DNA of 64,000 nucleotides from a virus (IMGVR_UViG_3300005259_000074:160001-224000), one strand, 5' to 3'. Shown: positions 2,621 to 23,967, counted from the stretch's first letter. Notes: generated by a model not told the origin, from the sequence alone. Translations and numbers: made by a program.

Positions 2621-3316
2621 GTGATGGGAAAGTGTTGGAGTGCACTGTCATCAGCTGCCGAAGCCATGCAAAATGTAGGCAGTGGTTTGACCGTGATAGT
2701 TCCACGCAGAACTCCAGATGCATGGTGGAAAGATGACAGTTATGCCGATGCGGTGTTAGAGCTCTCTGATCTGAAATACGGATTCCCAGTGATCAGAGCT
2801 GAATTTCACCCAGTGATCTCAGATACTCAGTATTCCGTGATCATAGGAGTACCGTTCAGTATCGATGAAACTAATGTCATGGCGGTCATTAAAAATCTTT
2901 ATTTCGAGCAGACTTATCTATGTGATGATGTTGTCAACACTCGGATAGTGAGTGCGGCTGTCATTGCAGTATTGGAGCGCGTCAGAGATTCTGGATTGCT
3001 CGGAAAGTTGAAAGCAAAGATATCTGAAGAATGTGAGAAGATCATCAATGTAGCGAAAGTCAGCGTAGAAGACGTGAGGTTTTTTCCCGTGTTCGATGGG
3101 TTATCCTTCACCAATAGAAGAGGAAACCCCATCGGAATTGTGATGAAACATAAGAAGTATAACATATCTGCGACTTTCATGACTAACGGAAAGATTCTAG
3201 TCGAATCTTCGGATGGAAAGTTGTGTCCAGATTCTCACATGCTTCCTGCAGTCTGGCAGTTGATGCTAGACATAGCTGCCAGTAAAAGTGCGAGTTCTAC
3301 AATAGAGAACTTATGA
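2621..3316 (+). CDS. Hypothetical protein
   Basis: 231 aa ORF in operon. Confidence 0.65.
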   Translation: MMGKCWSALSSAAEAMQNVGSGLTVIVPRRTPDAWWKDDSYADAVLELSDLKYGFPVIRAEFHPVISDTQYSVIIGVPFSIDETNVMAVIKNLYFEQTYLCDDVVNTRIVSAAVIAVLERVRDSGLLGKLKAKISEECEKIINVAKVSVEDVRFFPVFDGLSFTNRRGNPIGIVMKHKKYNISATFMTNGKILVESSDGKLCPDSHMLPAVWQLMLDIAASKSASSTIENL

Positions 3317-3621
3317 AGACGAAGAATAGCGATCCTCTTAGTTCCTGCATTGTGTCAGTGATCATCGATAAGACGTACATGCAGAGGGGAGTGTTTGTCA
3401 TGATGCTGTGTGTCATTTCTCTCTTGTTCTGCAATTCAATTATTTTCTTAACAGGATATTTGATAGCAGATGTAGTGTGCTATCACGATTGGATCGCAAT
3501 CTTTCCTACAATATTCGCTGTCGCATCCACATACGTGTACTTTTTGATGCTGTTTCAGTTGTGTCGAGCTGTCGAGAAGGAGCTAGCGGATCGTGTTGAA
3601 GACGCAGTAGAGAAGCTCTAA
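3313..3621 (+). CDS. Hypothetical membrane protein
   Basis: Two hydrophobic segments; ATGA overlap with previous gene. Confidence 0.65.
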   Translation: MKTKNSDPLSSCIVSVIIDKTYMQRGVFVMMLCVISLLFCNSIIFLTGYLIADVVCYHDWIAIFPTIFAVASTYVYFLMLFQLCRAVEKELADRVEDAVEKL

Positions 3622-3634
3622 AACATCCTCCGCG

Positions 3635-3967
3635 GTGTATTTTAAAGAAACGAAAGGACATAATCATATGCAAATGGACTCTGAAGAAGTTCGTAAGACT
3701 ATCTCGGAAGTGTGCGAAGAGCTGAAGAGCATATTGTTGGAGAAGAACAAGGCGTATGGGAACTCAGCGCTCGAACCAGTCAGAGTGTTCTCCCGTGCCA
3801 ACCCGCTCGAGCAGATCAACGTCAGGATCGATGACAAGCTATCTCGTATATCTCGTGGTAGTGAATTCCAAGGAGATGATACAGAGTTCGACCTCATTGG
3901 GTATCTGATTCTCAAGAGAGTCTACAAGAGGATGACTACAAATGAAAATAGAGACGGAAAAGGCTAA
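3635..3967 (+). CDS. DUF1599 / nucleotide-modification-associated domain 1-like protein
   Basis: LLEKNKAYGNS...RIDDKLSRI...D.EFDLIGYLIL signature. Confidence 0.75.
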   Translation: MYFKETKGHNHMQMDSEEVRKTISEVCEELKSILLEKNKAYGNSALEPVRVFSRANPLEQINVRIDDKLSRISRGSEFQGDDTEFDLIGYLILKRVYKRMTTNENRDGKG

Positions 3968-4265
3968 TTTGCGTTATCGTCTCAATTCTTTTTGTCTCGC
4001 TCTAAAGAAGATCTCTGAAGATACAGAAGACTTCGATGATATATTTTGTCTTCCACTGATGAACACAAATGGAAAGTCAAAGACTCTGAAAGAGAGCCGA
4101 GAATTGCAGAAGAAGTGCACTCTCTATCAATCTCATGAATCTGGGTGGTGCAAGTTCTGCATGTCTGTCAGGGACTTCGACGGTGAGGAAGTGTGGTCAG
4201 ACATCTGTAAGAATGATTTCGCCAAAGATAAAGCCGCTATCATCAAAGCACTCGATGACATCTGA
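3942..4265 (+). CDS. Cys-rich hypothetical protein
   Basis: ORF track; ends AAIIKALDDI. Confidence 0.65.
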   Translation: MKIETEKANLRYRLNSFCLALKKISEDTEDFDDIFCLPLMNTNGKSKTLKESRELQKKCTLYQSHESGWCKFCMSVRDFDGEEVWSDICKNDFAKDKAAIIKALDDI

Positions 4266-4274
4266 GGAATTCGT

Positions 4275-4505
4275 ATGACCGCTAAAGAGAATTTCTGCTC
4301 AGTCAGTACAGTCGACGTGGCTTTTGTATGCGGATGGCCTCACCAAGGAGATAAGGTTCCTTCTAAATGCAAATTTTTTATCAGAGCGAGACCGTGGAAC
4401 CTCAATGTTTGTAAGTGGTTCCAAGGTAGGACGCGCCCTAATTCTTGTTGCTGCGAAGAAGCTCAAGATGAAGCGATCATCGTCATGAAGATAGGTGACA
4501 TATGA
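4275..4505 (+). CDS. Cys-rich hypothetical protein
   Basis: ORF track; ends IVMKIGDI. Confidence 0.65.
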   Translation: MTAKENFCSVSTVDVAFVCGWPHQGDKVPSKCKFFIRARPWNLNVCKWFQGRTRPNSCCCEEAQDEAIIVMKIGDI

Positions 4506-4804
4506 AGAAGACGTTCTGGGGAACTATGGATGGCGCTAAGAAGTTCAATCTGGCAGTGTACAGAGACCTTGATAAGTACGGCAGGCCAAACTCCAACTTA
4601 GTTCAGAGGGTCACCGAGAGAATTCTTCCCCGGTGTTCAGATGAATGTGAACGTGGAGATTGTTGCAGTTATCTTGAAGTAGAAGAGTTGGATGATTGTT
4701 ATTTTGCTTTTGAAGACAACACGATATCTTATTATTGCTCTAAGATTGGAGCGTATAAGCGCGCGGTAGATGCTGATCTTCTCAGGAAAATCGAGAACAT
4801 ATGA
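4502..4804 (+). CDS. Cys-rich hypothetical protein
   Basis: ORF track; ends LLRKIENI. Confidence 0.65.
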   Translation: MKKTFWGTMDGAKKFNLAVYRDLDKYGRPNSNLVQRVTERILPRCSDECERGDCCSYLEVEELDDCYFAFEDNTISYYCSKIGAYKRAVDADLLRKIENI

Positions 4805-5064
4805 ATGATCGTTTGTTTGCGGGAACACTGAATAAGAGTATAAAAAGATTTGGAGAGGTTCTTCCTGCTTGTACAAATGGTGGGAATATATGGTGCTCTT
4901 ACTTTAAGTACGAGAAGAATGAACTATACTGCATACATGTACAGTTCTTGTCTCATAGTGAACAATTTGAAGAACACGCGTCATGTGGATATTTCTGCAG
5001 GCATGTGAATGCCTTTTGCCTCGCACAAGAGGCTGACTCTATAAGGAAATTGGAAGAGATTTGA
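4801..5064 (+). CDS. Cys-rich hypothetical protein
   Basis: ORF track; ends SIRKLEEI. Confidence 0.65.
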   Translation: MNDRLFAGTLNKSIKRFGEVLPACTNGGNIWCSYFKYEKNELYCIHVQFLSHSEQFEEHASCGYFCRHVNAFCLAQEADSIRKLEEI

Positions 5065-5591
5065 AAGTCATCAATTTTTTCGGGGCTTCTGGAGTAGGTA
5101 AGAGCACTCTCGCAGCGGGCCTCTTCCACATGATGAAGATGAATGGCCAGCGGGTCGAGTTGGTCACTGAGGTCGCTAAAGACTTAGTGTGGGCCGGTAG
5201 GAAGAAGTGTCTGTCGGACCAGATGTACGTCATAGCGATGCAGAATCATCGTCTAGAAGTCCTTAGAGATCAAGTGGACTACGTTGTCACTGACTCCCCT
5301 ATACCGCTGGGCATAGTCTACGCACCAACGAAGTACTTCAAGTCGTTTCCAGTGTTGATCATGGAGATCTTCAACAGCTACGAGAACCAAAATTTCTACG
5401 TCACTAGGAGGAATTTCGACTACGTCCGCGATGGACGTAAAGAGACGGAACAAGAATCCGATGCCAAAGGAAAGACCATCCTCCGCCTGCTAGAAGACCA
5501 ACACGTTCCTTATGAACACATAAGAGGGGACACTAAAGTGCTGTCCACTGTGTATATTGAGGTTGTCGGAGCAACACCAAAGGTAGTTTAA
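5061..5591 (+). CDS. P-loop NTPase/kinase (AAA_28/NadR-like)
   Basis: GASGVGKST, ELVTEVAKDLVW, VVTDSPI. Confidence 0.75.
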   Translation: MKVINFFGASGVGKSTLAAGLFHMMKMNGQRVELVTEVAKDLVWAGRKKCLSDQMYVIAMQNHRLEVLRDQVDYVVTDSPIPLGIVYAPTKYFKSFPVLIMEIFNSYENQNFYVTRRNFDYVRDGRKETEQESDAKGKTILRLLEDQHVPYEHIRGDTKVLSTVYIEVVGATPKVV

Positions 5592-6541: not shown

Positions 6542-7642
6542 ATGTCGAACTCTGACGCTGGGTCTGTGGAAGCAGATCAACCTCCCTTGCCTAAGAATGA
6601 AAACTGCTGGAGATGGCAGTTAGCTAACAGGATAACCACAGCAGCTCAGCTGTCTGATATCATAGAACTAACCGAAGACGAACGATCTGCAATAGACCAC
6701 ACTGGTCTTCCCTTCGCGATAACTCCTTATTACGCGAAGCTGATATCAAACCCTCATATAAGAAAGTGCGTAGTGCCGAGCACTCATGAGATGACACACA
6801 GCGTCGGAGAAGACGCGGACCCACTCGGAGAAGAGTCTCACTCGAACGGCACGTGCGTAGTCCACCGGTACCCTGATCGCTGTCTGTTCATGGTGACTAA
6901 ATTCTGCTCGACGTTCTGCCGGTACTGCACTCGTTCTAGACTGGTTAGTGAAGGTGAGTGCATCTCAGATACTGACATAGAGGCAGGCATAGCTTATATC
7001 AGAGACCACGCGAAGATCAGAGATGTGATAGTGTCGGGTGGAGACCCTCTGACACTGTCTACAGATAAGTTAGACCGCATACTGACTGCGATAAGAAGCA
7101 TTTCACACGTGGAAGTCATCAGAATAGGTACTAAGGTTCCTGTGGTCCTTCCTCAGCGGATCGATCAAGAATTATGCCACATGTTAATGAAACACCACCC
7201 ACTGTTCGTTAATATACACTTCACTCACCTTGCGGAGCTGACACCTGAATGTGTTTCAGCGTGTTCTAAGCTTGCCAATTCTGGGATACCATTGGGATCT
7301 CAAACAGTGCTACTGAAAGGCGTCAACGATGATGCAACAACTATGAGACAGCTGTTTCAGGGACTGTTGAAGGCTCGGGTGATACCGCGATACTTGTACC
7401 AGTGCGACCCGGTGTTCGGTTCGTCTCACTTCCGGACTGACACGTCAGTGGGGTTAGACATCATCAGGTCTCTCAGAGGGTGGACTAGTGGGATGGCATG
7501 TCCCAGGTACGTCATTGACGCGCCTGGTGGTGGAGGAAAGATATGTCTAGAGCCGAACAGCGTGGTTGAAGACAATAGTGAAAAAATCACCATGAAGAAC
7601 TTCAGAGGAGAACTATACTCCTATCCGAAATTAGCGTCGTGA
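6542..7642 (+). CDS. kamA: KamA-family radical SAM lysine 2,3-aminomutase-like enzyme
   Basis: VHRYPDR, CSTFCRYCTR, SGGDPL, RIGTKVPVVLPQR, QTVLLKGVND, PGGGGKI (PLP Lys). Confidence 0.9.
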   Translation: MSNSDAGSVEADQPPLPKNENCWRWQLANRITTAAQLSDIIELTEDERSAIDHTGLPFAITPYYAKLISNPHIRKCVVPSTHEMTHSVGEDADPLGEESHSNGTCVVHRYPDRCLFMVTKFCSTFCRYCTRSRLVSEGECISDTDIEAGIAYIRDHAKIRDVIVSGGDPLTLSTDKLDRILTAIRSISHVEVIRIGTKVPVVLPQRIDQELCHMLMKHHPLFVNIHFTHLAELTPECVSACSKLANSGIPLGSQTVLLKGVNDDATTMRQLFQGLLKARVIPRYLYQCDPVFGSSHFRTDTSVGLDIIRSLRGWTSGMACPRYVIDAPGGGGKICLEPNSVVEDNSEKITMKNFRGELYSYPKLAS

Positions 7643-8640: not shown

Positions 8641-9042
8641 TCAGCACGTAGTGAATGGGATCACTAACGGCTCTTCTTTGAAGTTCTTTCGGAATGTTTT
8701 GACGCACTCCTTGAAGTTGTCTTCGAAATCTGAGATAGATTCTTCTCCGCCGTTCTCTACGTCTGCGACAGTCAGACCGAGTATGAATCGCTCGAAACAT
8801 TCATCACTGTTGATCTCGACGTCTTTGATCTTCATCTTGTCGAACGCCTCTAGGATGATCTCTTGGATCTCTCCTGGATCTTCTTCATCTATGTCCTCAG
8901 CTACTGCGGCGTACGTCTCTTTGAATTTATCGAGGTTTTTGTTGAGGAATTTCACGAGGTCTCCAATTTCTTCAAAAGACTTTCCAACGATGAGAAAGCT
9001 CGAAGAACTGCTGTTAGACACGAATCCCGCTCTGATCTTCAT
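8641..9042 (-). CDS. GFVSNSSSSSF-family protein
   Basis: N-terminus MKIRAGFVSNSSSSSF. Confidence 0.75.
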   Translation of the reverse strand: MKIRAGFVSNSSSSSFLIVGKSFEEIGDLVKFLNKNLDKFKETYAAVAEDIDEEDPGEIQEIILEAFDKMKIKDVEINSDECFERFILGLTVADVENGGEESISDFEDNFKECVKTFRKNFKEEPLVIPFTTC

Positions 9043-9054: not shown

Positions 9055-9354
9055 TCAGTATGTTTCTTGCAATATGTCGATCTTCATCTCTCTCAACATG
9101 AAACCCAAAAGAATGCTCACGTGTTGGTCAGTTGTGAGATGGTATGCTGAGAGTCCCTTGCACTTCCCATCGGAGATCTTCTTCTTACTCTCTTCATTGA
9201 GGTCCCAATCAGTCTCGTCTAGATCGTGTACTGAAGAATCGAACTCCGTTTCAGCTTTGCACATCCTCTTCATGAAACCCAGCTGATCTTTGTCAGCTAG
9301 TACTATGAAGCTAGATGAACTGCTGTTAGACACAAAACCATCTCTGCACTTCAC
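9055..9354 (-). CDS. GFVSNSSSSSF-family protein
   Basis: N-terminus MKCRDGFVSNSSSSSF. Confidence 0.75.
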   Translation of the reverse strand: MKCRDGFVSNSSSSSFIVLADKDQLGFMKRMCKAETEFDSSVHDLDETDWDLNEESKKKISDGKCKGLSAYHLTTDQHVSILLGFMLREMKIDILQETY

Positions 9355-9897: not shown

Positions 9898-9969
9898 AGC
9901 CCAAAATCGGTGCCGACCCGATGACCTCGTCCTTACCAAGGACGTGCTCTACCGCTGAGCTACTTGGGC
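9898..9969 (-). tRNA. tRNA-Thr(GGT), no encoded CCA
   Basis: Cloverleaf; CGTCC-TT GGT AA-GGACG. Confidence 0.85.
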
Positions 9970-9975
9970 ATATGT

Positions 9976-10049
9976 TGGTGCGGTTAGGGAATTACGATAT
10001 CCCGATTGCTGTCTGGCAGGCAGCCGTCTTTCCTCTAGACTATAACCGC
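9976..10049 (-). tRNA. tRNA-Gly(GCC)
   Basis: GCTGC-CT GCC AG-ACAGC; CCA end. Confidence 0.85.
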
Positions 10050-10060
10050 AATGTAATTAT

Positions 10061-10453
10061 TTACCCTCTCAGGCAGCTTCCACAAGCTCCAGAAGGTTTG
10101 CAGTCTTCTGGACACCTTGTCATATCTTCTTCGTCTCTGTACTTCTCGATCATTGTCTTAGCTGTGAAGATCAACGCGCGATTTCTAGCGCCTTTCATCG
10201 TCTTGGAGTATGGAGTGACCTCTAAAAATCCTTTCCACGTGACGAATCCCCTATAAGTCTTACCCACGCTGAACACGTGGACTCTGACATCTTTCGCTGG
10301 GTCACAGTGATATCTGTTATCTCGCTCTTTCACCCACTTAGCTTTCTTGAAGACCTGCAATCGTTCTTTCACGTCGAACAGAGTTGGATGATACTTGACA
10401 TCGTCTTCTGAGAACGATATGTCTATCTTCTGCATGATCGTGAAATTGTCCAT
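10061..10453 (-). CDS. Hypothetical protein
   Basis: 130 aa ORF with a Cys-rich tail. Confidence 0.6.
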   Translation of the reverse strand: MDNFTIMQKIDISFSEDDVKYHPTLFDVKERLQVFKKAKWVKERDNRYHCDPAKDVRVHVFSVGKTYRGFVTWKGFLEVTPYSKTMKGARNRALIFTAKTMIEKYRDEEDMTRCPEDCKPSGACGSCLRG

Positions 10454-10454
10454 G

Positions 10455-10649
10455 TCATCTTCTCACTTCTGGTATTGGAAGTCCTTCTTCTCTCAGCATT
10501 TCTATCCCATCATCGATAGCTTCTTCTAGAATCTCTAGAGCTTTCACTTGGTCTCTATCAATACCCGACAGATGAGGAAAATCTTTGCACACGGCGATGA
10601 ACTCACCGTGTTCTTCGTCGTACACAATGATCTTGTTGTAGTGTGACAT
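10455..10649 (-). CDS. HicB-like antitoxin N-terminal domain only
   Basis: YDEEHGEFIAVCKDFPHLSG...ALEILEEAI...LREEGLPIP matches the HicB partial RNase H fold pattern; no DNA-binding domain. Confidence 0.75.
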   Translation of the reverse strand: MSHYNKIIVYDEEHGEFIAVCKDFPHLSGIDRDQVKALEILEEAIDDGIEMLREEGLPIPEVRR

Positions 10650-10724
10650 TGGTATCCTCTGTAGGTAACGAGCCTACGACCTTCGCGATGTGAACGCGAT
10701 GCTCTACAACTGAGCTAAGAGGAC
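10650..10724 (-). tRNA. tRNA-Val(CAC)
   Basis: TCGCG-TT CAC AT-CGCGA; CCA end. Confidence 0.85.
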
Positions 10725-10735
10725 AAGAAACTTCA

Positions 10736-11041
10736 TCATTTCCACAATTTGTACCAAGAGAACGGCTTCGGCCACTGATCGTTAGGCCTTGGACAGAACA
10801 CCAACGCAGTCTCAGCACCACCAAGTCCCGACTCGGTCATCAACACGTATTTGTCGAACTTCTTGGCGTTCTCAAATTCTCTGTCGTTGAGCTTACAGAT
10901 GCACTTCCTGAAAGACTTGTCTAGCCATAGGTCGTAGTCTGCGTCTTTCCCAGAGAACTGCCTGTCGGCCGCTAACACTCCGTGCCCGACGGCCAGCATA
11001 GCGTGTCCTATGTCGATAGACTCTCTGACCAAGATGTACAT
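10736..11041 (-). CDS. Pth2-family peptidyl-tRNA hydrolase
   Basis: MYILVR...GHAMLAVGHG...WL...FRKCICK...ESG...ETALVFCP pattern. Confidence 0.7.
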   Translation of the reverse strand: MYILVRESIDIGHAMLAVGHGVLAADRQFSGKDADYDLWLDKSFRKCICKLNDREFENAKKFDKYVLMTESGLGGAETALVFCPRPNDQWPKPFSWYKLWK

Positions 11042-11054
11042 CCTGGTGCTGCAC

Positions 11055-11240
11055 TCAGTCGAAGTCGTCGTACTCACTGTACTTGTCCATTTCTACGTCA
11101 TCTAGGAGTTCTTCGATGAGCTTCTTCTCAGACACTCGTTTTTCGTTGCGGTTCTTCATCGTCTTCTCTTGTGGGTTGACTTCCCACATTTTGCGTGTCA
11201 ATTTGTAGGACGGCGTCTTCTGGTGCTTCTTAGAGCTCAT
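11055..11240 (-). CDS. Small hypothetical protein
   Basis: 61 aa ORF. Confidence 0.55.
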   Translation of the reverse strand: MSSKKHQKTPSYKLTRKMWEVNPQEKTMKNRNEKRVSEKKLIEELLDDVEMDKYSEYDDFD

Positions 11241-11398
11241 TTCATCTTTCTCTTCTTGATAACTGTACTGCGTCTAGCTCTCTTCCAGAATTCCTCAGTG
11301 AGTTCTGGAATGTCTGAATAGTCTATTTCAGAATCTTTCATCGCCCTGAGTCTGTCGATGTCATCTTGTTTTATCTTTCGTGTAGAGCGATCTACCAT
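11237..11398 (-). CDS. BrnA-antitoxin-like N-terminal peptide (53 aa)
   Basis: Hand-translated: MVDRSTRKIKQDDIDRLRAMKDSEIDYSDIPELTEEFWKRARRSTVIKKRKMK. Confidence 0.7.
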   Translation of the reverse strand: MVDRSTRKIKQDDIDRLRAMKDSEIDYSDIPELTEEFWKRARRSTVIKKRKMK

Positions 11399-11553
11399 TC
11401 TGTGATAGTCTTTCTGAAATCTTCTTTCGGAAGATTCTTATACCTGCGAACTTTCTTCTTGCAGTAAGGACAGCGTTCTCCTTCGCTCACGAGTGCGTGA
11501 TCGCAACATGGACACCAAGAATGCCTGTATCTGTGTAAAGGGCCGCGCTTCAT
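11392..11553 (-). CDS. Small Zn-ribbon protein
   Basis: CPCC...CPYC; start moved to MKRGP so it does not overlap the tRNA. Confidence 0.6.
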   Translation of the reverse strand: MKRGPLHRYRHSWCPCCDHALVSEGERCPYCKKKVRRYKNLPKEDFRKTITEW

Positions 11554-11556
11554 AAT

Positions 11557-11631
11557 TGGTAGGAGTAGAGGAAATCGAATCCCCATAGCCGACGTGTAGA
11601 GTCGGTGCACTTACCGTTGTGCTATACTCCC
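11557..11631 (-). tRNA. tRNA-Val(TAC) with C33
   Basis: CCGAC-TC TAC AC-GTCGG; CCA end. Confidence 0.75.
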
Positions 11632-11639
11632 ATAACAAA

Positions 11640-11740
11640 GTCTAGATCGAGCAAGTTTGGAGCGGTCCGGACATTTTACTGCAGCAATCTGTCCAAACAT
11701 CCTAAAGCATCTAATTATATATTTCTTGCTCGACCTAGAC
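11640..11740 (-). ncRNA. Candidate ~100 nt structured RNA
   Basis: 16-bp terminal stem GTCTAGGTCGAGCAAG/CTTGCTCGATCTAGAC plus an internal GGACA/TGTCC hairpin. Confidence 0.5.
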
Positions 11741-11752
11741 CCATAAATCATC

Positions 11753-11887
11753 TGGTGCCTATAACCGGTCTCACGACCAGTAACCCTCCCGACTCCTCGA
11801 CTGTTGGTCTAGCAGATTTACCATGGCACTCTGCTATACTCTGTCGCACCCTCGTTCGCGTGAAAGCAATCGATTGCTTTCCTAGGC
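11753..11887 (-). ncRNA. Multi-arm tRNA-like RNA ending in ACCA
   Basis: Acceptor GCCTAGG/TATAGGC-A-CCA with a T-arm-like hairpin and extra hairpins. Confidence 0.55.
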
Positions 11888-11908
11888 TGGCGCTTGACGT
11901 ATCAAGCG
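11888..11908 (-). ncRNA. CCA-tailed microhelix
   Basis: CGCTTGA-TACG-TCAAGCG-CCA. Confidence 0.45.
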
Positions 11909-11912
11909 TAAA

Positions 11913-11986
11913 TGGTCCCTCCAGCAGATCTCGAAACTGCGTCTCGGGCTTATGAAACCCGCGTTCTTCCTGTGAACTATAGAGGG
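11913..11986 (-). tRNA. tRNA-Met/Ile2(CAT)
   Basis: CGGGT-TT CAT AA-GCCCG; CCA end. Confidence 0.8.
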
Positions 11987-11996
11987 ATAATGCACG

Positions 11997-12070
11997 TGGT
12001 ACTCCTTGAGGGTTCGAAACCTCGACCTCTTCCATGTCACGGAAGTGCTCTACAACTGAGCTAAAGGAGC
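11997..12070 (-). tRNA. tRNA-Val(GAC)
   Basis: CTTCC-GT GAC AT-GGAAG; 5' end overlaps the NADAR stop codon. Confidence 0.85.
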
Positions 12071-12501
12071 ATGAGATCGTTCTTGACTGTCCTTCTGATG
12101 TTCTTCCTTATCAGCATGATCATCTTACCTAGTACGTTCTTCCCAGTGCCTTTGCACTGGCTGCAATAACATACTCCCCAGCAGCGGTCGTGCCACGTGT
12201 TGCCTTCTTCGAGGTACTGATCGCCTGTGTCTAGCAACTTCTGCCTCAACACTGGGTCTCTGAACTTGTAGACCAGAAGTCGGTACATCACTCGGTACTT
12301 CTTGACTTCCCAGTCTGGAACCATTGAACAGACTTGACCTGCTCTCTTGGCTTGCCCTGGAGATGGGAGGTGAGCGATGTACTTCCTAGTCGAGGGACTA
12401 GATGCTTTCGCAGCTTGGTAGTAGTGCTCGATAGTCTTTCCGTTCGGGAACTTCGAAAAATTGGAGAGCCAACGAGTGTCGCCGCGAAATTCCTTGATCA
12501 T
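12061..12501 (-). CDS. NADAR (YbiA/DUF1768) family protein
   Basis: WLSNF, EHYYQAAK, M..L...KF....L...LL.TG...L.EGN.WHD..WG....GKNVLGK. Confidence 0.9.
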   Translation of the reverse strand: MIKEFRGDTRWLSNFSKFPNGKTIEHYYQAAKASSPSTRKYIAHLPSPGQAKRAGQVCSMVPDWEVKKYRVMYRLLVYKFRDPVLRQKLLDTGDQYLEEGNTWHDRCWGVCYCSQCKGTGKNVLGKMIMLIRKNIRRTVKNDLMLL

Positions 12502-12682: not shown

Positions 12683-12685
12683 AGA

Positions 12686-14080: not shown

Positions 14081-14114
14081 TGGTGGAACGCCGCTCTTTT
14101 CATAACCGCGCCCC
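14081..14114 (-). ncRNA. 34-nt Ala-type minihelix with ACCA end
   Basis: GGGGCGC...GCGTTCC-A-CCA with G3.U70 and A73. Confidence 0.55.
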
Positions 14115-14305: not shown

Positions 14306-14381
14306 TGGTGGTGTCGGCGGGCAATGATCCCACAACTTTCCGGGTAAGAGCCGGATACTCTGCCAATTGAGTTACGACACC
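14306..14381 (-). tRNA. tRNA-Lys(CTT)
   Basis: TCCGG-CT CTT AC-CCGGA; CCA end. Confidence 0.88.
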
Positions 14382-14388
14382 TTGAATC

Positions 14389-14512
14389 TGGTAACGGACC
14401 TACATTTAGTAGTGCCTCATGGGCTATGTTGCCCAGCGTGCTGCCCCGCCAAATGTTTCTATCCGGGGCGAGGTGACGCAGTGATGGTTCTGCGCCTTTA
14501 CACCATTCCGTA
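14389..14512 (-). ncRNA. Multi-arm tRNA-like RNA ending in ACCA
   Basis: ACGGA/TCCGT acceptor, D-arm-like 5' TGGTGTAAAGG, three internal hairpins, degenerate T arm. Confidence 0.55.
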
Positions 14513-14520
14513 ATAAACTG

Positions 14521-14588
14521 TAGCGGAGCTGGATTCGATACCAGATCACCAGGTTATGAGCCTAGTATGCTACTTACACCACCCCGCA
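14521..14588 (-). tRNA. Initiator-like tRNA-Met(CAT)
   Basis: TGCGGGG/CTCCGCT with 1:72 mismatch; CTAGG-CT CAT AA-CCTGG. Confidence 0.72.
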
Positions 14589-14940
14589 TGTTGGTGTCTC
14601 TAGGACACCATAAAGAGTCATCAGTTGACGCTCTCCGAGCGATCATCAGAGGTGGAGAAGTTTCTTAGACAGAGATGAATCTTGACGGGACCATTTGAGT
14701 TGGGTAAAAACCCACGTGAGGTCCTTCGTGGCACATGTCTGTCAGACGCCGGCTGCTCAGCAACCGACATCGCTCCTCCACCTCGGATGACCACTGGAAA
14801 GCGATCACCTGAGAATAATCCTCATTTTCAAAGAACGGTGCATGAGCTTTAGTAGCACGCATATCTCTCAGTCTGTTCAGCTAGCGACTTGCGCCTCTAG
14901 CATCTGAAAGCTCTCGCGACTCATGCTGAGTCCATTTTGT
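14589..14940 (-). ncRNA. Candidate ~350 nt structured RNA of unknown class
   Basis: TCATCCGAGGTGGAG/CTCCACCTCTGATGA long-range helix plus several local hairpins. Confidence 0.5.
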
Positions 14941-14942
14941 CT

Positions 14943-15017
14943 TGGTGCGCTCGGAGAATTTTGAAATCTCGACTCTCTGGTTAAAAGCCAGATACTCTGC
15001 CTCTGAGTTACGAGCGC
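14943..15017 (-). tRNA. tRNA-Lys(TTT)
   Basis: TCTGG-CT TTT AA-CCAGA; CCA end. Confidence 0.9.
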
Positions 15018-15055
15018 ATATTTCTAATCAGCACCTGAGACTTTCACATCTCATT

Positions 15056-15132
15056 TGGTGGGAGAACCGGGTTTCGATTCCGGATATCCTGCTCTTCAGG
15101 CAGGAGCTCTTGACCGTTTGAGCTATTCTCCC
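15056..15132 (-). tRNA. tRNA-Phe(GAA)
   Basis: CCTGC-CT GAA GA-GCAGG; CCA end. Confidence 0.88.
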
Positions 15133-15141
15133 ATAAACTTC

Positions 15142-15216
15142 TGGTATCCCGTGTCGGTATCGATCCGACTTCCCCTGGATGAAGGCCAGGCATCCTAGCC
15201 AGTAGACGAACGGGAC
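15142..15216 (-). tRNA. tRNA-Glu(TTC) with C33
   Basis: CCTGG-CC TTC AT-CCAGG; CCA end. Confidence 0.82.
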
Positions 15217-15379
15217 AAATGTGAATGAGATGTCTCGCGACATACCAGTTGCAAGCAACTGTCTCACTCATATTCAATGATCACCGGCTTCCGATCTCTC
15301 GTCCGCCTAATCCAATTATACACCACGTGGTGAAAATTGTAATAGGACTTTCGAAAAATCTTCGACCTTTCTTTCGAAC

Positions 15380-15454
15380 TGGAGCTGGTTCCCGGTGACG
15401 ATCCGAGGTCTGTGGGATACGAATCCACTGCTCTACCATTTGAGCTAAACCAGC
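15380..15454 (-). tRNA. tRNA-Thr(CGT)
   Basis: TT CGT AT loop; CCA end. Confidence 0.82.
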
Positions 15455-17448: not shown

Positions 17449-17649
17449 ATGATCATCACGACTGAAGAAGAGTACGAAGCTGCATTGAAGAGAGTCGAGA
17501 GCCTGTGGGTTGCCGAAGATGGCTCCTCTGAGGCCGACGAACTACACTCTCTCGTCCTCGCGATAGAGGAGTGGGATGACGAACACTATCCCATAGATCC
17601 ACCTACAGCCGAAGCGGCGATTGAGTTCAGGAGAGAACAAGAGAAGTGA
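17449..17649 (+). CDS. HigA-like antitoxin N-terminal domain only
   Basis: TEEEYEAALKRVESLW...EADELHSLVLAIEEWDDEHYPIDPPTAEAAIEFRREQ; stops where the HTH would start. Confidence 0.8.
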   Translation: MIITTEEEYEAALKRVESLWVAEDGSSEADELHSLVLAIEEWDDEHYPIDPPTAEAAIEFRREQEK

Positions 17650-17945
17650 ACTTGGAAGTGGTTTCTTCTCCAGTTGAATATTCGAAGCCGTCGTGGAATG
17701 ACACGGTTATCCGGGATTCTAACGGTATGTACTGGATCATCGATAGTACAGCCCCGGGGAATTCTTTTTGTAAGCAGCGCCAATGTAAGGATGATGGGAC
17801 GGAATTTGATAAGTCGACTATCGCTCGGACGGGGTTTGCGCGCCCGACGCACGAACTTTTAGCTGATCTGGGAAGAGGAAGAATTATGATTTGTGAGAAG
17901 TTGACGGCGGAACTCAGATTGCTGAAGAAGATAGATGGAGTCTGA
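17646..17945 (+). CDS. Hypothetical protein
   Basis: ends LLKKIDGV. Confidence 0.65.
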   Translation: MNLEVVSSPVEYSKPSWNDTVIRDSNGMYWIIDSTAPGNSFCKQRQCKDDGTEFDKSTIARTGFARPTHELLADLGRGRIMICEKLTAELRLLKKIDGV

Positions 17946-17948: not shown

Positions 17949-18380
17949 ATGCGTATGAAATTGAGATTCTTACGCGAGTGGCAGAGCATCAATGACGCAA
18001 AAAGAAGTCTCTTAAATCAGTTACGACATAACTGGGAACCCTCTAAATGGCCAGAAGGAGTCGAGGAAGCCGTCCTCGAGAAGCTCAAGAAGTTTCCAAA
18101 CTGCGACGGTTGGATCACCATGTATTTCCTCTCGACGGCGTTCTTCGTTGTATGCGCTCTGATATTCTCAGTGCCTTTTCTCATTGGCGTCCCAGTGCGG
18201 TCAGGAGCGGATCGCATGACAGTTGTCTTCTTCATTGTAACGTTGACGACTATATCAATCTTCATCGTCAGCTCTATATTCATGATCGTGAAGAACACCC
18301 GGGCTGGCCAACAGATGTTGAATCAAGCACGCGAAAATCTACAAGACGGATTGTTAGATCATAAATTAGAGGAACTATGA
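17949..18380 (+). CDS. Membrane protein
   Basis: Two TM segments; ends DHKLEEL. Confidence 0.65.
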   Translation: MRMKLRFLREWQSINDAKRSLLNQLRHNWEPSKWPEGVEEAVLEKLKKFPNCDGWITMYFLSTAFFVVCALIFSVPFLIGVPVRSGADRMTVVFFIVTLTTISIFIVSSIFMIVKNTRAGQQMLNQARENLQDGLLDHKLEEL

Positions 18381-18670
18381 ACAACAAAGTCTTCAGAGGC
18401 GTTAAGACCGAGATGCTAGAAAAGAAATTTCATGCCGAACTGAAGAAGATGAATATAGAAGAAGAATGCATATGTGAGATAGTATTCACAGATATGAAAG
18501 ACCCTCGCTACATATTCATGACAGAATGTTGTGGTTATAGAAACAACAATTTCAGTGGACAGTGTATGTATGTCATCGATGATAGGCTTTCGATGAGGAT
18601 ATGCAATCATCCCAAGCGTGAAAAATTCATGCAAGAGACTTGTCTCTTAGTTGCGATGGAGAGGATATGA
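18377..18670 (+). CDS. Cys-rich hypothetical protein
   Basis: ends LVAMERI. Confidence 0.65.
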   Translation: MNNKVFRGVKTEMLEKKFHAELKKMNIEEECICEIVFTDMKDPRYIFMTECCGYRNNNFSGQCMYVIDDRLSMRICNHPKREKFMQETCLLVAMERI

Positions 18671-18960
18671 ATCATTTTAAATATCCCTGCGGTGTAACAT
18701 TCATAGAAAAAGCGGCGATGAATTCGCGGTGTTCTTTTTCATGTCCTCATGTTGCGTGTGAGAAATATCCTCGTCATAATGAATGTAATTCAAAGGCGTG
18801 GTTAAATTGGATCATGACATCAAGGTTAGAAGAAGAACTTCCAGGAGCCGACTATTTCATCGGCGTAGATAAGTGCGGACATCCGTTAAACGAGAAAGTG
18901 AAAAGACATTCTCTACTTCTGTATGAGAATCTGGTGAAGAATACTGCGAGACAGAAATGA
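18667..18960 (+). CDS. Cys-rich hypothetical protein
   Basis: Start at the ATGA overlap (18667). Confidence 0.6.
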   Translation: MNHFKYPCGVTFIEKAAMNSRCSFSCPHVACEKYPRHNECNSKAWLNWIMTSRLEEELPGADYFIGVDKCGHPLNEKVKRHSLLLYENLVKNTARQK

Positions 18961-19205
18961 AGAATGCTGTAAGACATTATGAGACACACTCAGTATCATG
19001 CAAGTCTAGTGTTGACTGTTTCGTGTGCAATTATAATGTCATTGGAGAGTGTCTCTATAGAAAAGAAGATAGTAAACACAGATGTCAGTATGTTGGAAAG
19101 TGGTTCTTCAACAGAGGAGAGTGTTACAACAAGAGTGCAATAAATGAGGCTTTTAAAGAGAAAGCCACTGAGGTAAAAGTGTTGAGACAGATGGAGAAAA
19201 TCTGA
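18957..19205 (+). CDS. Cys-rich hypothetical protein
   Basis: ends LRQMEKI. Confidence 0.65.
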   Translation: MKNAVRHYETHSVSCKSSVDCFVCNYNVIGECLYRKEDSKHRCQYVGKWFFNRGECYNKSAINEAFKEKATEVKVLRQMEKI

Positions 19206-19206: not shown

Positions 19207-19458
19207 ATGTTTAGAGGTGTGATAAGTGAAGACATCAACGGCGGGAGGGAAGTCCTCTGCGACGGAGAAGCTTTCACCGAAGATGATCCTCGCTACTTCA
19301 TGTCTCAAGAACAGTGCGGCTACTTTGAGGAGAACCGTGAAGGTGATTGTTTCCACAGGTACAGGAAGGACCCAGGTGATTGGTGGACGTGCATCCACCC
19401 TCTCCACCGCTCGCTCGCTGAGGATACTCTGATCGAGATACGACTGGAGGGGATATAG
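19207..19458 (+). CDS. Cys-rich hypothetical protein
   Basis: MFRGVI...LCD...DDPR...WWTCIH; ends IRLEGI. Confidence 0.7.
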   Translation: MFRGVISEDINGGREVLCDGEAFTEDDPRYFMSQEQCGYFEENREGDCFHRYRKDPGDWWTCIHPLHRSLAEDTLIEIRLEGI

Positions 19459-19748
19459 TGTTTAAAGGCGTCATAGATCTGAGCATCAATAGTGAGAGGA
19501 AAGTATTCTGTGATAGCAATGCATTCTCTGGAGATGACCCTCGTTCTAAGTATCCCGAATCTTCGACTCTGTGCAGCCACTATAACGCGGGACCCGGGTT
19601 TGGCATTTCTTCTAAAGGATCTTGGACATGCATTCATCGAATCCAACGCTGCGATAAAGGGTGGGGCATGTGCGATCACCCGGATGCTAAAGATCTTGCA
19701 CTGACTACAGAAGAAGCTATACTAGAAGATAAACTGGAGAAGATATAG
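19458..19748 (+). CDS. Cys-rich hypothetical protein, paralog of 19207
   Basis: MFKGVI...FCD...DDPR...SWTCIH; ends DKLEKI. Confidence 0.7.
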   Translation: MFKGVIDLSINSERKVFCDSNAFSGDDPRSKYPESSTLCSHYNAGPGFGISSKGSWTCIHRIQRCDKGWGMCDHPDAKDLALTTEEAILEDKLEKI

Positions 19749-20068
19749 TGTTCAAAGGGACTCTCGATCTCGACTACACTCACCTCAGCAGTAAAGAAAT
19801 AGATGAAATAACTTCGTTGGCGTCGCCAGTCTTGTGCGACAGGTATTTGTTTGTTGGGGTTGACCTTAGGTCACAACTGATGGACCATGAGTGCGAGTGT
19901 TATGAATCAATGATGTCTCCTCAAGGATCAGTAAGTTGTCGTCATTTAAAGAAAATTGAATCTAAAATAACAGGCCCGTGGCGAACGTGCACTCGACACG
20001 ATGCACGACAGCTAGCTAAACATCAAGACGACGAGTGGAAAATCTTACTGAAATTGGAGAACATATGA
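19748..20068 (+). CDS. Cys-rich hypothetical protein, paralog
   Basis: MFKGT...LCD...WRTC; ends LKLENI. Confidence 0.7.
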   Translation: MFKGTLDLDYTHLSSKEIDEITSLASPVLCDRYLFVGVDLRSQLMDHECECYESMMSPQGSVSCRHLKKIESKITGPWRTCTRHDARQLAKHQDDEWKILLKLENI

Positions 20069-20343
20069 AACCTCCTTATGTTCCGATGTTAGAAGTTGAC
20101 ACTATCGTCGATGTCGGTTATTCACTCAGAAGATCGGGAGGATATTTCATGGTGACGAGTATAATAGGAAGTCACTATGAATTCAGGCGGTGCACTAAGT
20201 CCGGCAACAGATTTTTCAAGTATCTGATGGAACACGAATGTGAAGTAGTCGACCGCTTGATCGTCGACGGAGACAATCTATTGCACGTGATGGAAGAAGA
20301 GACGAACGAGTACAGACTCAACAAGAGGCTCCAATCGCTGTGA
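20065..20343 (+). CDS. Hypothetical protein
   Basis: Start at the ATGA overlap; ends KRLQSL. Confidence 0.6.
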   Translation: MKPPYVPMLEVDTIVDVGYSLRRSGGYFMVTSIIGSHYEFRRCTKSGNRFFKYLMEHECEVVDRLIVDGDNLLHVMEEETNEYRLNKRLQSL

Positions 20344-20630
20344 AGATAGAACACAACATGGTGGTGAAGTGCGTCAGAGGAGGGGGCGGCCAGAGCGAAT
20401 GGAAGAACTGGGGCACTGCACTGTATGTAGTGAAATTGACGAAAGAGAAAGGACACTGCTTTCTCGAGAAATGTGAGAGTAAGTTTAAGAAAAATTTCAA
20501 GATAAAAAGTTGTCGAAGTTATAATCTCAAGGTGAAAACTGTAGAGAAGTTCATAACCGAAGGTTCTTTCATTGTAGAAGAGAAGCTGTCAGCTGACTAC
20601 AAAATCTTCTTAGAACTGGAGAAGTTGTGA
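20340..20630 (+). CDS. Hypothetical protein
   Basis: ends LELEKL. Confidence 0.6.
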   Translation: MKIEHNMVVKCVRGGGGQSEWKNWGTALYVVKLTKEKGHCFLEKCESKFKKNFKIKSCRSYNLKVKTVEKFITEGSFIVEEKLSADYKIFLELEKL

Positions 20631-21073
20631 CTGTATTTGAACACAACAAAGAAGCAAAGAGGGTTAGAGATAGAGCTATCACACTCATGAAAGAATGTGA
20701 AGAAGCTTGGGAGGATAATCTCTTGTCAGCGCAAATAGCCATGTACATCTTAAACTATCTGTTAAAATACCTCAAACAAGAATCGGCTCTTGTCGCTGAA
20801 GTCAAAGACTGCATTATCATGAGCGCGATATTCACCGTGCAGATACTCAACTTATTGACGATCATCTATCCTAGTTCATATGATAGTGTTTCCTTTTACA
20901 TTTTTAACACGTTGCAAGTAGTATTGTTGATAATCTTGATGAAGTATTCTACAAAATACAGTCAAACACTGCTCGTGTTGAAGACTGTGACATCTGAGAA
21001 TGATGACAAACTGAACGAAATCACAAGCAGTATGAGAGACATAATAGCAGAAAATAAAATAGAGAGAATATGA
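20627..21073 (+). CDS. Membrane protein
   Basis: TM segments; ends NKIERI. Confidence 0.6.
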   Translation: MTVFEHNKEAKRVRDRAITLMKECEEAWEDNLLSAQIAMYILNYLLKYLKQESALVAEVKDCIIMSAIFTVQILNLLTIIYPSSYDSVSFYIFNTLQVVLLIILMKYSTKYSQTLLVLKTVTSENDDKLNEITSSMRDIIAENKIERI

Positions 21074-21165
21074 ACTCAATGAATGAAAACATATTACAAA
21101 TACAGGAGACGTATGATATAATATAATACTTGTGAATTGAACTATGAAATAAAAAATCAGGAGAG

Positions 21166-22017
21166 ATGATGCCAAAGAAATTGAAGTACGATAGGAACAA
21201 ACAATCGGACATAGTTCAGTCTCAACACGCGTACAATCCTATCGACATATATGTCGAACAGATTGATAGACTCACTAGTTCTGAAGACTTGATCGAGAAG
21301 AATTTAAGATTCGCGCTGAAAGAAGCTCACAAATACAAGAACAACGGCATGGATCTCGAAGATCTTATTCAAGAAGCGAACAAGGGTCTCGTCGTCGCAG
21401 CCGAAAAGTACGATGCGTCGAAAGGTCCTTTCCTGCACTACGCGAAGTTCTACATCCGTAAGTTCATCTTAGCCACATTGACCACGACGAATGGTTCTGT
21501 GTCTGAAGCATCGGGCCACAAGTACGCGGTGCGGATGATAAAGCGGACTAGGCAGAACTTGGTAGAAGCGGGGAATCTAAATCCGTCGATCAGCGATATC
21601 GCAGCTGCCTGTGGAAAGTCAGAACGCCAAGTGAAGTTCGCACTATCGGGCCAAGTGCAGGGTATAGTTAGGCTTGACATGCCGGTCGATCATCACAGCG
21701 GTGACTGTAATAGAGACACCCACGAAGTCATATCTCTAGACAATCTCGATGCCAATGCCGACGGATATGGCTACAGCAGCTCTCCGGAGATGACCGCGAT
21801 GGCAGCCGACCGAAGGGCAATCCTTACTAAGATGTTCTCAGAGTTGCCGGACCAGGAACGAGACGCCGTCATCAAACGCCTCATCGAGGGAAAGACTCTT
21901 CAAGAGATAGCGGAAGAACACGGTATGACAACGACTGGAGTCAAGGGTATCGTGGAACGAGCGGTATGTATGCTCATGGATGCGGCTGAGAAGTACAAAC
22001 AAGAGATGATAGCGTAG
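21166..22017 (+). CDS. Sigma-70 family RNA polymerase sigma factor
   Basis: Region 2 NLRF...DLEDLIQEANKGL..AAEKYD...F..YA; region 4 LPDQER..I......TLQEIA..HGMT. Confidence 0.88.
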   Translation: MMPKKLKYDRNKQSDIVQSQHAYNPIDIYVEQIDRLTSSEDLIEKNLRFALKEAHKYKNNGMDLEDLIQEANKGLVVAAEKYDASKGPFLHYAKFYIRKFILATLTTTNGSVSEASGHKYAVRMIKRTRQNLVEAGNLNPSISDIAAACGKSERQVKFALSGQVQGIVRLDMPVDHHSGDCNRDTHEVISLDNLDANADGYGYSSSPEMTAMAADRRAILTKMFSELPDQERDAVIKRLIEGKTLQEIAEEHGMTTTGVKGIVERAVCMLMDAAEKYKQEMIA

Positions 22018-22582: not shown

Positions 22583-22594
22583 TCGATTTAATTC

Positions 22595-22634
22595 GCCGCT
22601 CGCTGGAGAACAACCCTCGTCTCCAGCGAGCGGC
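22595..22634. terminator. Strong hairpin, probable terminator
   Basis: 14-bp perfect stem GCCGCTCGCTGGAG/CTCCAGCGAGCGGC. Confidence 0.55.
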
Positions 22635-22643
22635 TGATCCCAT

Positions 22644-23462
22644 TTGGAATCTCACATGAGAATGATGCACTTGTCAGATTTGCACATCGGAGCTGCTCCT
22701 CGGCCTAACGCGCTGAACAGCTGTTCTCCTGTTGTTCCGAGAGTGAAGAAACACGTAGCCGAGGAGAAGCCCGATGTCGTAGTGATATCCGGAGACATCT
22801 TCGAGTATGATGTTCCCATGGAGTCTCGAATCTTCACACTCAAACACATGTTCGGTGACATTCCGACAGTATTCTGCTTGGGCAACCACGAGTTCTTCTA
22901 TAGGAACGTCCCAGATGCGCTAGACATGCAGTACGCGTATGATAAAGTCCCAGGATTGTACTGTCTAGACACCTGCGGACACGTTGATATCAGTGGAGTC
23001 AGATTCGTCGGTAACGTACTCTGGTACGATGGAAAGCACAAGCTTCCAGGTCAGGTGATGGAAGAATGGGCTGATGGATGCTGGGCTGACCGTCTGATCG
23101 AGGATCACGCTTCTTCTTGGTGGTTGTTCAATGCAGCATGCATAAAGCAGATAACAGACAACATTGGTAATTCTGACAAAAAGAAAGTGTTGGTGACTCA
23201 CTGTGTCCCACACAGTGATCTCAATGCTTTCAACAAGCAGAAGCCGTCGTCTGACTTCAACGCATACAGCAGCACTGACATCATCGGCAAAGATGATGCG
23301 CTGTACGACGTCTTCGACTACGCTTTGTGCGGTCACACTCACAACCCAGTCAGAATGCAGATAGGAAAGACGCAGTGCTATTGCTCACGTCAAGACTACT
23401 TTAGGTACACGGGAGTCGTAGAGTATGATATCATCGAACTTCTTGATGCAAGTCGAGAATGA
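22644..23462 (+). CDS. Calcineurin-like metallophosphoesterase
   Basis: SDLH, SGD, GNHE, THCVP, GHTH. Confidence 0.88.
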   Translation: MESHMRMMHLSDLHIGAAPRPNALNSCSPVVPRVKKHVAEEKPDVVVISGDIFEYDVPMESRIFTLKHMFGDIPTVFCLGNHEFFYRNVPDALDMQYAYDKVPGLYCLDTCGHVDISGVRFVGNVLWYDGKHKLPGQVMEEWADGCWADRLIEDHASSWWLFNAACIKQITDNIGNSDKKKVLVTHCVPHSDLNAFNKQKPSSDFNAYSSTDIIGKDDALYDVFDYALCGHTHNPVRMQIGKTQCYCSRQDYFRYTGVVEYDIIELLDASRE

Positions 23463-23631
23463 ATCACTGAGCAACACACTGACTAAATTTTTAAACGGTG
23501 AACTGTCAGTGGAAGACTCCCGAGCAATCATCAGCACATCCGGCCTTTCTGAAGAAGCAAAGATGAATTACAACTTACTGCTAGATGTCGCTCTATCGAA
23601 GAAATGCGATAAGAAAATGGAAGAAATATGA
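23425..23631 (+). CDS. Hypothetical protein
   Basis: ends KKMEEI; start uncertain. Confidence 0.5.
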   Translation: MISSNFLMQVENESLSNTLTKFLNGELSVEDSRAIISTSGLSEEAKMNYNLLLDVALSKKCDKKMEEI

Positions 23632-23641
23632 AAGAGTTTCC

Positions 23642-23669
23642 TTTACATTCTTCATTTAGAGATTAATGT
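23642..23669 (+). promoter_or_regulatory. Early-type promoter TTTACA-N16-TAATGT
   Basis: cctttacatt context as at 744 and 1340. Confidence 0.55.
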
Positions 23670-23691
23670 ATCTTACAAGAGAGGGAACCTC

Positions 23692-23967
23692 ATGAGCGAG
23701 AGTAGAGTCAAACACAAAGGAAAGTACTACAAGATAGATGTTGATTGTGTGTTCGAGAAGACGCGAGAAGGCATGATAGGAAATTGGGAAGTGGCAAAAG
23801 AGATGTGTGAATTCTATCAGCCGCTGTTTAGTACGAGAATCGTGTGTAAGCACGCGTATTTCACTCGCTTGAGGAAGACGTGGAAACCTATCAAGTGTCA
23901 CGATCGCAGACGAAAAAAAGCGCAAATACGCGACTATGAGATAGCTGTTGCACTAGAAGAGGTGTGA
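23692..23967 (+). CDS. Hypothetical protein
   Basis: ends VALEEV. Confidence 0.6.
   Translation: MSESRVKHKGKYYKIDVDCVFEKTREGMIGNWEVAKEMCEFYQPLFSTRIVCKHAYFTRLRKTWKPIKCHDRRRKKAQIRDYEIAVALEEV

Follow-up and report, generated by a model that had tools for sequence, protein, structure and literature searches.

The DNA analysed here, called the window below, is a stretch of 64,000 nucleotides (nt) that corresponds to bases 160001-224000 of IMGVR_UViG_3300005259_000074, a single contig of 262,470 bp from an uncultured, T4-like jumbo phage. We report that small proteins of this phage, 19 of them encoded in the window, end in a common C-terminal peptide, hereafter the tail, which is very probably a genuine peptide-level module and which may dock its bearers onto a shared partner. 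The contig carries a T4-type replication set (DNA polymerase, UvsX-like recombinase, DnaB-like helicase, ligase, ribonucleotide reductase and SbcCD) and further encodes a gp55-like late sigma factor, a single-stranded DNA-binding protein (SSB) and a clamp loader; its polymerase shares only about 31% identity with cyanomyovirus polymerases. A search of a phage collection with the DNA gave no match to the contig, a scan of viral and metagenome contigs with two window proteins (the products of 21169-22017 and 1424-2575) gave no relative, and a literature search returned no description of such a C-terminal tail. Gene calling with a dicodon model and interval scheduling yielded 460 genes, covering 91.5% of the genome. 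Coordinates are those of the window unless the genome is named.

Tail-bearing genes in the window

The original prediction had described about 20 unrelated small proteins sharing the C-terminal signature [KR][LIM][ED]x[IL]-stop and had taken it for a portable feature of the peptide, attached to Cys-rich, membrane and soluble proteins alike. All 17 of the C-termini that it quoted were found at their stops, and two more, STIENL (stop at 3316) and DAVEKL (stop at 3621), bring the number of bearers in the window to 19. All three kinds of protein are among them. The word 'unrelated', however, was only partly right, since about 11 of the 19 belong to a single family of Cys-rich mini-proteins, and in these genes the tail is a trait of the family as well; the other 8 do not fit it.

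The two additional genes open the series. The first (2624-3316, +) encodes a 230-amino-acid (aa) ORFan without a match in Pfam or PHROG, which ends ..SASSTIENL and whose stop overlaps the next ATG (TTATGA). The second (3313-3621, +) encodes a small protein with two transmembrane (TM) segments that ends ..DRVEDAVEKL; the gene finishes with CTC TAA, 46 nt before the next called gene, and its called start is 3352, 3313 being an ATG that overlaps the stop of the preceding gene. A 107-aa Cys-rich protein follows (3942-4265, +; ..AAIIKALDDI), encoded at its end by CTC GAT GAC ATC TGA with no GGAG and separated by 9 nt from the next gene, whose Shine-Dalgarno (SD) sequence falls 3' of the stop. Beside it, a 76-aa Cys mini-protein (4275-4505, +), recognized as a family member by a hidden Markov model (HMM), has the variant tail ..EAIIVMKIGDI and overlaps the following gene by ATGA, as does the 100-aa Cys-rich protein ending ..DADLLRKIENI (4502-4804, +). 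The latter is a paralogue of the 87-aa Cys-rich product of 4801-5064 (+; ..EADSIRKLEEI), a gene that overlaps the AAA_28 gene at 5061-5591 by TTGA.

Further along the same strand lie a 99-aa non-family protein (17646-17945, +; ..ELRLLKKIDGV; 3-nt gap), a 143-aa two-TM protein (17949-18380, +; ..DGLLDHKLEEL; ATGA overlap) and a 97-aa Cys-rich paralogue (18377-18670, +; ..LLVAMERI; ATGA overlap). They are followed by an 82-aa Cys mini-protein and HMM member with a modelled C-terminal helix (18957-19205, +; ..EVKVLRQMEKI), by an 83-aa Cys mini-protein (19207-19458, +; ..DTLIEIRLEGI) and a 96-aa paralogue (19458-19748, +; ..EAILEDKLEKI), each with a TAGTG overlap, and by a 106-aa paralogue with an ATGA overlap (19748-20068, +; ..EWKILLKLENI). 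A 96-aa non-family protein with a GTGA overlap (20340-20630, +; ..DYKIFLELEKL) precedes a 148-aa two-TM protein (20627-21073, +; ..DIIAENKIERI), which is uncoupled: it keeps ATATGA, with no open reading frame (ORF) of at least 30 codons after it. The region closes with an uncoupled 68-aa protein that is not of the Cys type (23425-23631, +; ..SKKCDKKMEEI, written ATG GAA GAA ATA with no GGAG) and a 91-aa Cys mini-protein and HMM member lying 1 nt before a GTG start (23692-23967, +; ..DYEIAVALEEV).

Two bearers are encoded on the other strand. One is a 174-aa ORFan beside the UvsX-like gene (44719-45243, -; ..EELIINKIEDI), with a 46-nt gap to the next called gene; it was left out of the strictly uncoupled set defined below because a TTG 22 nt after its stop opens a frame of 302 codons. 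The other is a 280-aa Pyr_excise (DenV-like) glycosylase (55796-56638, -; ..EEEIRKVLDSI), which is uncoupled and carries the tail on an extension of about 100 aa. The original prediction had singled out the stops at 4265, 23631, 44719 and 55796 as lacking an overlapping downstream start, and as far as real genes are concerned this holds: the genes at 44719 and 55796 finish with ATC TGA, the gaps behind them being 46 and 38 nt, and 23631, which reads ATATGA, is followed only by a 12-codon ORF. After the tails of 20627-21073 and 23425-23631, the ATGA starts lead into very short ORFs only (21070-21110 and 23628-23666), which look like relics of lost downstream genes.

Frequency and placement of the tail

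In the region 2621-23967, [LIMV][ED]x[ILV]-stop was found on 16 of 46 genes, against 0.34 expected from the internal frequency of the pattern (0.0073 per position; binomial P = 5e-23), and one further gene has the variant ending KIGDI. Across the whole genome the same pattern closes 153 of the 460 genes (3.4 expected), and the stricter signature of the original prediction closes 84 (0.19 expected). Tails are dense at 20-100 kb of the genome (113/205 genes), at 160-180 kb and at 240-260 kb; the virion block at 100-160 kb is nearly free of them (4/63 genes), and they are rare in the replication block. The bearers have a median size of 81 aa, compared with 150 aa for the other genes. The tail is carried nearly always by small accessory genes of variable regions and by virtually none of the virion or replisome genes.

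At distant T4-like loci around the polymerase (L004-L022), the motif occurred only at background level, with 0-2 matches per locus, four of which were the C-termini of SSB homologues (LLDDL-type). The SSB-like protein of the window (38314-39309, -) ends ..DVKNGKF, as against ..LLDDL in these homologues of distant relatives.

A Cys-rich family and other carriers of the tail

Although the Cys-rich family is hyper-diverged, its members have a common layout, M-K-x-N-x-C ... C ... C-x-[FY]-[FY]-E ... C ... C-x-x-E-A ... tail. When bearers were clustered by blastp without their last 8 residues, 127 of 153 remained singletons, so that blastp sees almost no paralogy and profiles were required to reveal the family. 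An HMM, likewise built without the last 8 residues, recovered 95-96 members in the genome and none among shuffled decoys. In the window, 4 bearers are members by profile, and about 7 more fit by their Cys pattern, judged by eye, or by blastp paralogy, which groups 18377, 19207, 19458 and 19748 in one set and 4502 and 4801 in another. No match to the family was found in Pfam, in PHROG or among PDB folds.

About 43-48 bearers in the genome fall outside this family, including small membrane proteins, the DenV-like glycosylase and ORFans of 370-400 aa; a Pfam search with ten of the larger bearers gave no match. Of 28 predicted TM proteins, 9 carry the tail; in 7 of these it comes after a run rich in K and R that follows the last TM segment, a placement that suggests the cytoplasmic side. 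Conversely, there are copies of the Cys domain that have no tail. Among 1.84 billion representative proteins, a profile search gave 139 hits, 98 of them from metagenomes and not from this genome, and 21 of these 98 have no tail (77 have one). The family members on two other contigs, L027 and L029, stop after the start of the last helix (Cys-x-N-P-x-A) and are tail-less; L027 comes from an unrelated phage, which has a capsid gene of the SU10 type. Domain and tail are each found without the other, and the tail can thus be called modular.

Extent and predicted shape of the tail

The five-residue signature turned out to be the tip of an 11-residue module, [DE]xxFxx[KR]F[ED]xF-COOH, where F stands for a hydrophobic residue (L, I, M, V or A). 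This emerged when tails were aligned from the C-terminus and family and non-family bearers were compared at positions that had not been used to select the genes. Position -5 is basic in 64% of family and 56% of non-family tails (background 12%), position -8 is hydrophobic in 90% and 83% (background 37%), and position -11 is acidic in 85% and 73% (background 14%). Upstream of -11 only columns specific to the family were found, namely Ala at -10 and -14 and Cys at -15 and -17. Since the similarity between family and non-family tails ends at -11, we set the length of the module at 11 residues.

Tails are poor in Gly and Pro, and their hydrophobic residues at -8, -4 and -1 have a 4-then-3 spacing. 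The 82-aa product of 18957-19205 was modelled with AlphaFold2 (103 family sequences), with a mean predicted local distance difference test score (pLDDT) of 67; in this model residues 59-81 form a single helix of 23 residues, with a mean pLDDT of about 82 over residues 61-82. The tail is accordingly predicted to close an amphipathic, acidic helix, and not to follow a hydrophobic one as originally proposed. A homodimer prediction with two copies of the same product scored 0.00, which is no evidence either way, and a Foldseek search of the model against the PDB gave no match.

We considered the possibility that the tail is no more than an autonomous C-terminal amphipathic helix that caps, stabilizes, solubilizes or self-associates, has no common reader and has spread because it ends a gene conveniently and does no harm. 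The confident 23-residue helix that the tail closes in the model, the depletion of Gly and Pro, the hydrophobic spacing and the way in which the tail runs on from the last helix of the Cys domain all agree with this explanation. Yet, it leaves unexplained why the same residues at six positions and a precise end at -1 recur on 150 proteins that differ in fold, among them membrane proteins and a 400-aa ORFan, and family members of other phages fold without the tail. We regard it as rather unlikely, though the likeliest of the alternatives.

Two candidates of other kinds were tried and rejected. Cleavage at a prohead-protease site (L/I-x-E) would take off a single residue, and far fewer than half of the tails have Glu at -2. 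A recombination cassette acting at the DNA level was ruled out by the extent of synonymous variation in the tail codons.

Translational coupling and conservation

The original prediction had allowed that part of the signature could arise from an SD sequence (GGAG) combined with an ATGA overlap. Tails are indeed most frequent where the stop overlaps the next start (90/160 genes), as against 9/34 adjacent genes, 17/71 genes with a gap of 4-20 nt (24%) and 36/169 genes with a larger gap (21%). If enrichment were confined to overlaps, it should disappear in uncoupled genes. We defined as strictly uncoupled those genes for which no start codon between -5 and +25 of the stop opens an ORF of at least 30 codons; the tail was present on 19 of these 122 genes, compared with 0.9 expected.

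Codon choice separates the two signals. At -3, Glu is written GAG 55 times and GAA 23 times in overlapped tails, and GAA 12 times and GAG 4 times in strictly uncoupled ones, the share of GAG among all Glu codons of the genome being 53%. Similarly, the codon at -4 ends in G in 56/90 overlapped tails against 5/19 strictly uncoupled ones. Uncoupled tails keep the residues with GAA, CTA, TTA and ATC codons. An SD core is found in 62 of the 90 overlapped genes with a tail, and also in 52 of the 70 overlapped genes without one. Furthermore, the hydrophobic residues at -4 and -1 and the Lys at -5 add nothing to SD pairing, E-G-G or K-E-V being better partners of the anti-SD sequence, and the conserved residues at -8 and -11, encoded 24-33 nt ahead of the stop, are outside the SD window. 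The SD and ATGA junction thus fails as the sole cause of the tail. In coupled genes it only shapes the choice of codons (xxG GAG ... ATA TGA); with the tail residues written in SD-forming codons, one sequence does both jobs.

Evidence of another kind came from a relative phage represented by three contigs of one metagenome (L023, L030 and L032), with a helicase 93% and a tail-tube protein 100% identical to those of the present phage. On L023, which keeps the gene order of genome 56-70 kb, other conserved genes are 93-100% identical whereas the mini-proteins are only 35-68% identical, indicating that the genes of the arrays evolve very fast. In 37 pairs of orthologues, identity is 50% in the body, as against 78% at -3 and 65% at -1; where the residue at -3 is shared (29 pairs), 10 pairs write it with another codon. 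The orthologue of 55796 reads RRVLENI in place of RKVLDSI (K to R, D to E, S to N), and that of 44719 reads NKMENI in place of NKIEDI (I to M, D to N). In both of these uncoupled non-family genes of the window, the changes stay within the classes of the motif. Among DenV-like orthologues the tail weakens as identity falls, reading RRVLENI at 64% identity and NKILQDI at 52% and being absent at 44%; the common 155-aa DenV-like homologues lack the entire extension.

These data bear on a second alternative, according to which the tail is a functionless by-product of descent and translational coupling, a junction cassette copied along arrays and to neighbours, with the uncoupled tails as relics. 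The high proportion of tails among overlapped genes (21-26% in the other classes), the richness of coupled tails in GAG and G-ending codons, the ATGA retained at 7 of 19 uncoupled tails and the fact that most bearers are paralogues are what such a process would leave behind. It does not account for residues that the SD does not need or that lie outside its reach, for uncoupled tails held with non-SD codons, for variation within motif classes in non-family orthologues, for the many tail-less overlapped genes with an SD, or for a class of tail that persists while bodies fall to 50% identity. We consider this explanation improbable. Because uncoupled genes, codon choice, SD-bearing overlaps without a tail, positions -8 and -11 and orthologues all agree, selection acts on the peptide. 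We put at about 0.85 the probability that the tail is real and forms a module at the level of the peptide.

Other features of the window

An array of 20 tRNA genes (9898-15454, -) includes Glu(CTC), Glu(TTC), Lys(CTT), Lys(TTT), Asp, two Asn, Ile(GAT) and two with CAT anticodons; several of them decode the commonest codons of the tail (AAG, GAG, GAC and AAC). Amid the small genes lie a full sigma-70-family factor with regions 2, 3 and 4 (21169-22017, +), distinct from the gp55-like late sigma factor (58161-58712, +), and a PF18894 phage metallopeptidase (22046-22582, +). Two small proteins (8641-9042 and 9055-9354, both -) begin with a Ser-rich leader, ..GFVSNSSSSSF, and a lysine-2,3-aminomutase-like radical SAM gene (6542-7642, +) is close to them.

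Possible function

The hydrophobic stripe at -8, -4 and -1, together with a free hydrophobic C-terminus and flanking acidic and basic charges, would make a recognition handle. Through such a handle many accessory proteins would dock, by the ends that face the cytoplasm, onto a single shared partner of phage or host origin, and the docked proteins could then be handled as a group, for instance cleared, localized or assembled. We assign a probability of roughly 0.3-0.4 to the tail working by docking to one common reader. Its fullest form, a proteome-scale address label by which a single reader would grip about 150 early accessory proteins, from Cys mini-binders and small membrane proteins to a repair enzyme, by an 11-residue helix and handle them as one class, is offered as a tentative and on balance doubtful proposal.

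Among the proteins encoded by the phage, candidate readers are an AAA_5 ATPase (1424-2575) and a protein with DUF2201-metallopeptidase and VWA domains (genome 158863-160497), the pair to which the original prediction referred; no test links either of them to the tail. Further candidates lie just past the window, at genome 225768-228197, in a cluster of Cpn10-like, ClpP-like protease (226066-226704; PF00574, 65 bits) and Peptidase_C39-like genes. It adjoins four tail genes (227266, 228272, 229489 and 229735), and no test links it to the tail.

Several observations weigh against the docking hypothesis. No reader was found: searches of the phage proteins with the Pfam domains PDZ (PF00595, PF13180; positive controls) and TPR (PF13432, PF13424) gave no match, and a search with AAA (PF00004) gave only the clamp loader and weak P-loop matches, with no unfoldase of the Clp, Lon or FtsH type. 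Within the Cys family, the helix that begins at the last Cys runs on into the tail, which there may be no more than an element of the fold. Paralogues in coupled arrays make up most of the bearers, and descent together with re-use of junctions accounts for part of their number. Finally, with ATGA still present at 7 of the 19 strictly uncoupled tails, some of these could be remnants of a coupling lost not long ago.

One special form of the handle would be a C-terminal degron, an option that the original prediction had listed together with a packaging signal and by which early accessory proteins would be removed in a timed manner by a host AAA+ protease of the FtsH or ClpXP type, perhaps with the phage ClpP-like protein. 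This role would suit a tag that is encoded in the gene, has 11 residues, a size comparable to that of the ssrA tag, and finishes the protein with a non-polar residue. The presence of the tail both on cytosolic proteins and on membrane proteins with cytoplasmic tails would suit it too, and the phage does encode a ClpP-like protease. Yet, the tail is a well-formed acidic helix, unlike the unstructured, non-polar ssrA-like tails, and neither an unfoldase nor an adaptor was detected in the phage. A degron is thus quite improbable. A capsid-packaging or ejection signal, which would have a precedent in the short portable peptide that T4-type phages place at the N-terminus of diverse, fast-evolving small internal proteins, is very improbable, because nine membrane proteins carry the tail, about 150 different cargoes are implausible, and a separate N-terminal leader, MSKFQELYE, is found on 11 proteins, none of them tailed.

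The short terminal peptides by which phages address proteins to one hub have, to our knowledge, few clients, as in the case of the clamp binders and internal proteins of T4 or the acidic tails of T7. Here a single tail ends about a third of the proteins of a phage, across folds, and is kept through a divergence of about 50% in their bodies. If a reader exists, the tail would be an experimental handle on about 150 ORFans, including a fast-evolving mini-protein family of 100 copies, and a ready-made portable tag. An address label of this kind would amount to a tagging system written into the genome, such as has not been described in a phage. The tail also provides a worked example of an SD/ATGA overlap and a peptide motif that are superimposed and yet separable.

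Comparison with known systems

The nearest parallel is found in T4, where gp43, gp33 and gp55 end in short, hydrophobic and acidic, interchangeable C-terminal peptides that are read by the clamp gp45 (Geiduschek and Kassavetis 2010, PMC2988020). The present tail is likewise hydrophobic and acidic and sits at the extreme C-terminus; that it is interchangeable is suggested by its presence on unrelated proteins. It differs in having about 150 clients rather than three, in having no aromatic residue and in being attached to membrane proteins. The predicted clamp clients of the phage end otherwise: the polymerase (53163-55757, -) in ..SDINSL and the gp55-like late sigma factor in ..ADFFNREIFDNDNPDHHKDE (its C-terminus ..FDNDNPDHHKDE, like that of the polymerase, does not fit the tail). 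The clamp is therefore not an obvious reader. In relatives the polymerase ends ..DLFELL or ..DLFSLF, as against ..SDINSL here.

Internal proteins of T-even phages carry a portable N-terminal capsid-targeting sequence of about 10 residues that is taken off by the prohead protease. The tail resembles it as a tag of about 10 residues that is carried by dissimilar, fast-evolving small proteins; it differs in being C-terminal and in its occurrence on 9 TM proteins as well. The phage has a candidate of its own for this kind of sequence. The leader MSKFQELYE or close variants, which we take to resemble the T4 capsid-targeting leader, opens 11 otherwise dissimilar proteins encoded outside the window, at genome 52738-54744 (five genes), 74595, 98702, 117516 and 251065 and, in a looser form, at 233252 and 242481.

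With the SD/ATGA junctions of coupled operons the tail shares 90 overlaps with the next start, 62 of them with an SD core, and codons bent towards GGAG. Unlike such junctions, it persists in uncoupled genes, reaches 33 nt upstream and is conserved as residues, not as bases.

C-terminal degradation tags of the ssrA/SspB type and class III PDZ ligands ([DE]-x-hydrophobic-COOH) are other familiar C-terminal signals. Like the ssrA tag, the tail has 11 residues and is C-terminal; it is encoded in the genome rather than added by transfer-messenger RNA, and is helical and acidic rather than non-polar. It agrees with a class III PDZ ligand in having E/D at -3 and I/L/V at -1 in all 153 cases, as follows from the construction of the motif, but no PDZ domain is detectable in the phage.

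The setting of the tail genes also has a counterpart. A promoter-like element, TTC[CT][CT]TTTACAT-N17-19-TATAtT, occurs at 12 sites in the genome, 10 of them intergenic (in the window at 652, 739 and 1335, +), and a close variant lies 3' of the uncoupled tail gene ending at 23631. The hyperplastic regions of T4-type genomes carry PeSL cassettes, intergenic DNA that drives shuffling (Arbiol et al. 2010, PMC2839356). Both systems have arrays of small, non-essential ORFans in variable regions with conserved sigma70-like early promoters between them; the difference is that the conserved element of the present phage is not intergenic DNA but a coding peptide at the ends of genes.

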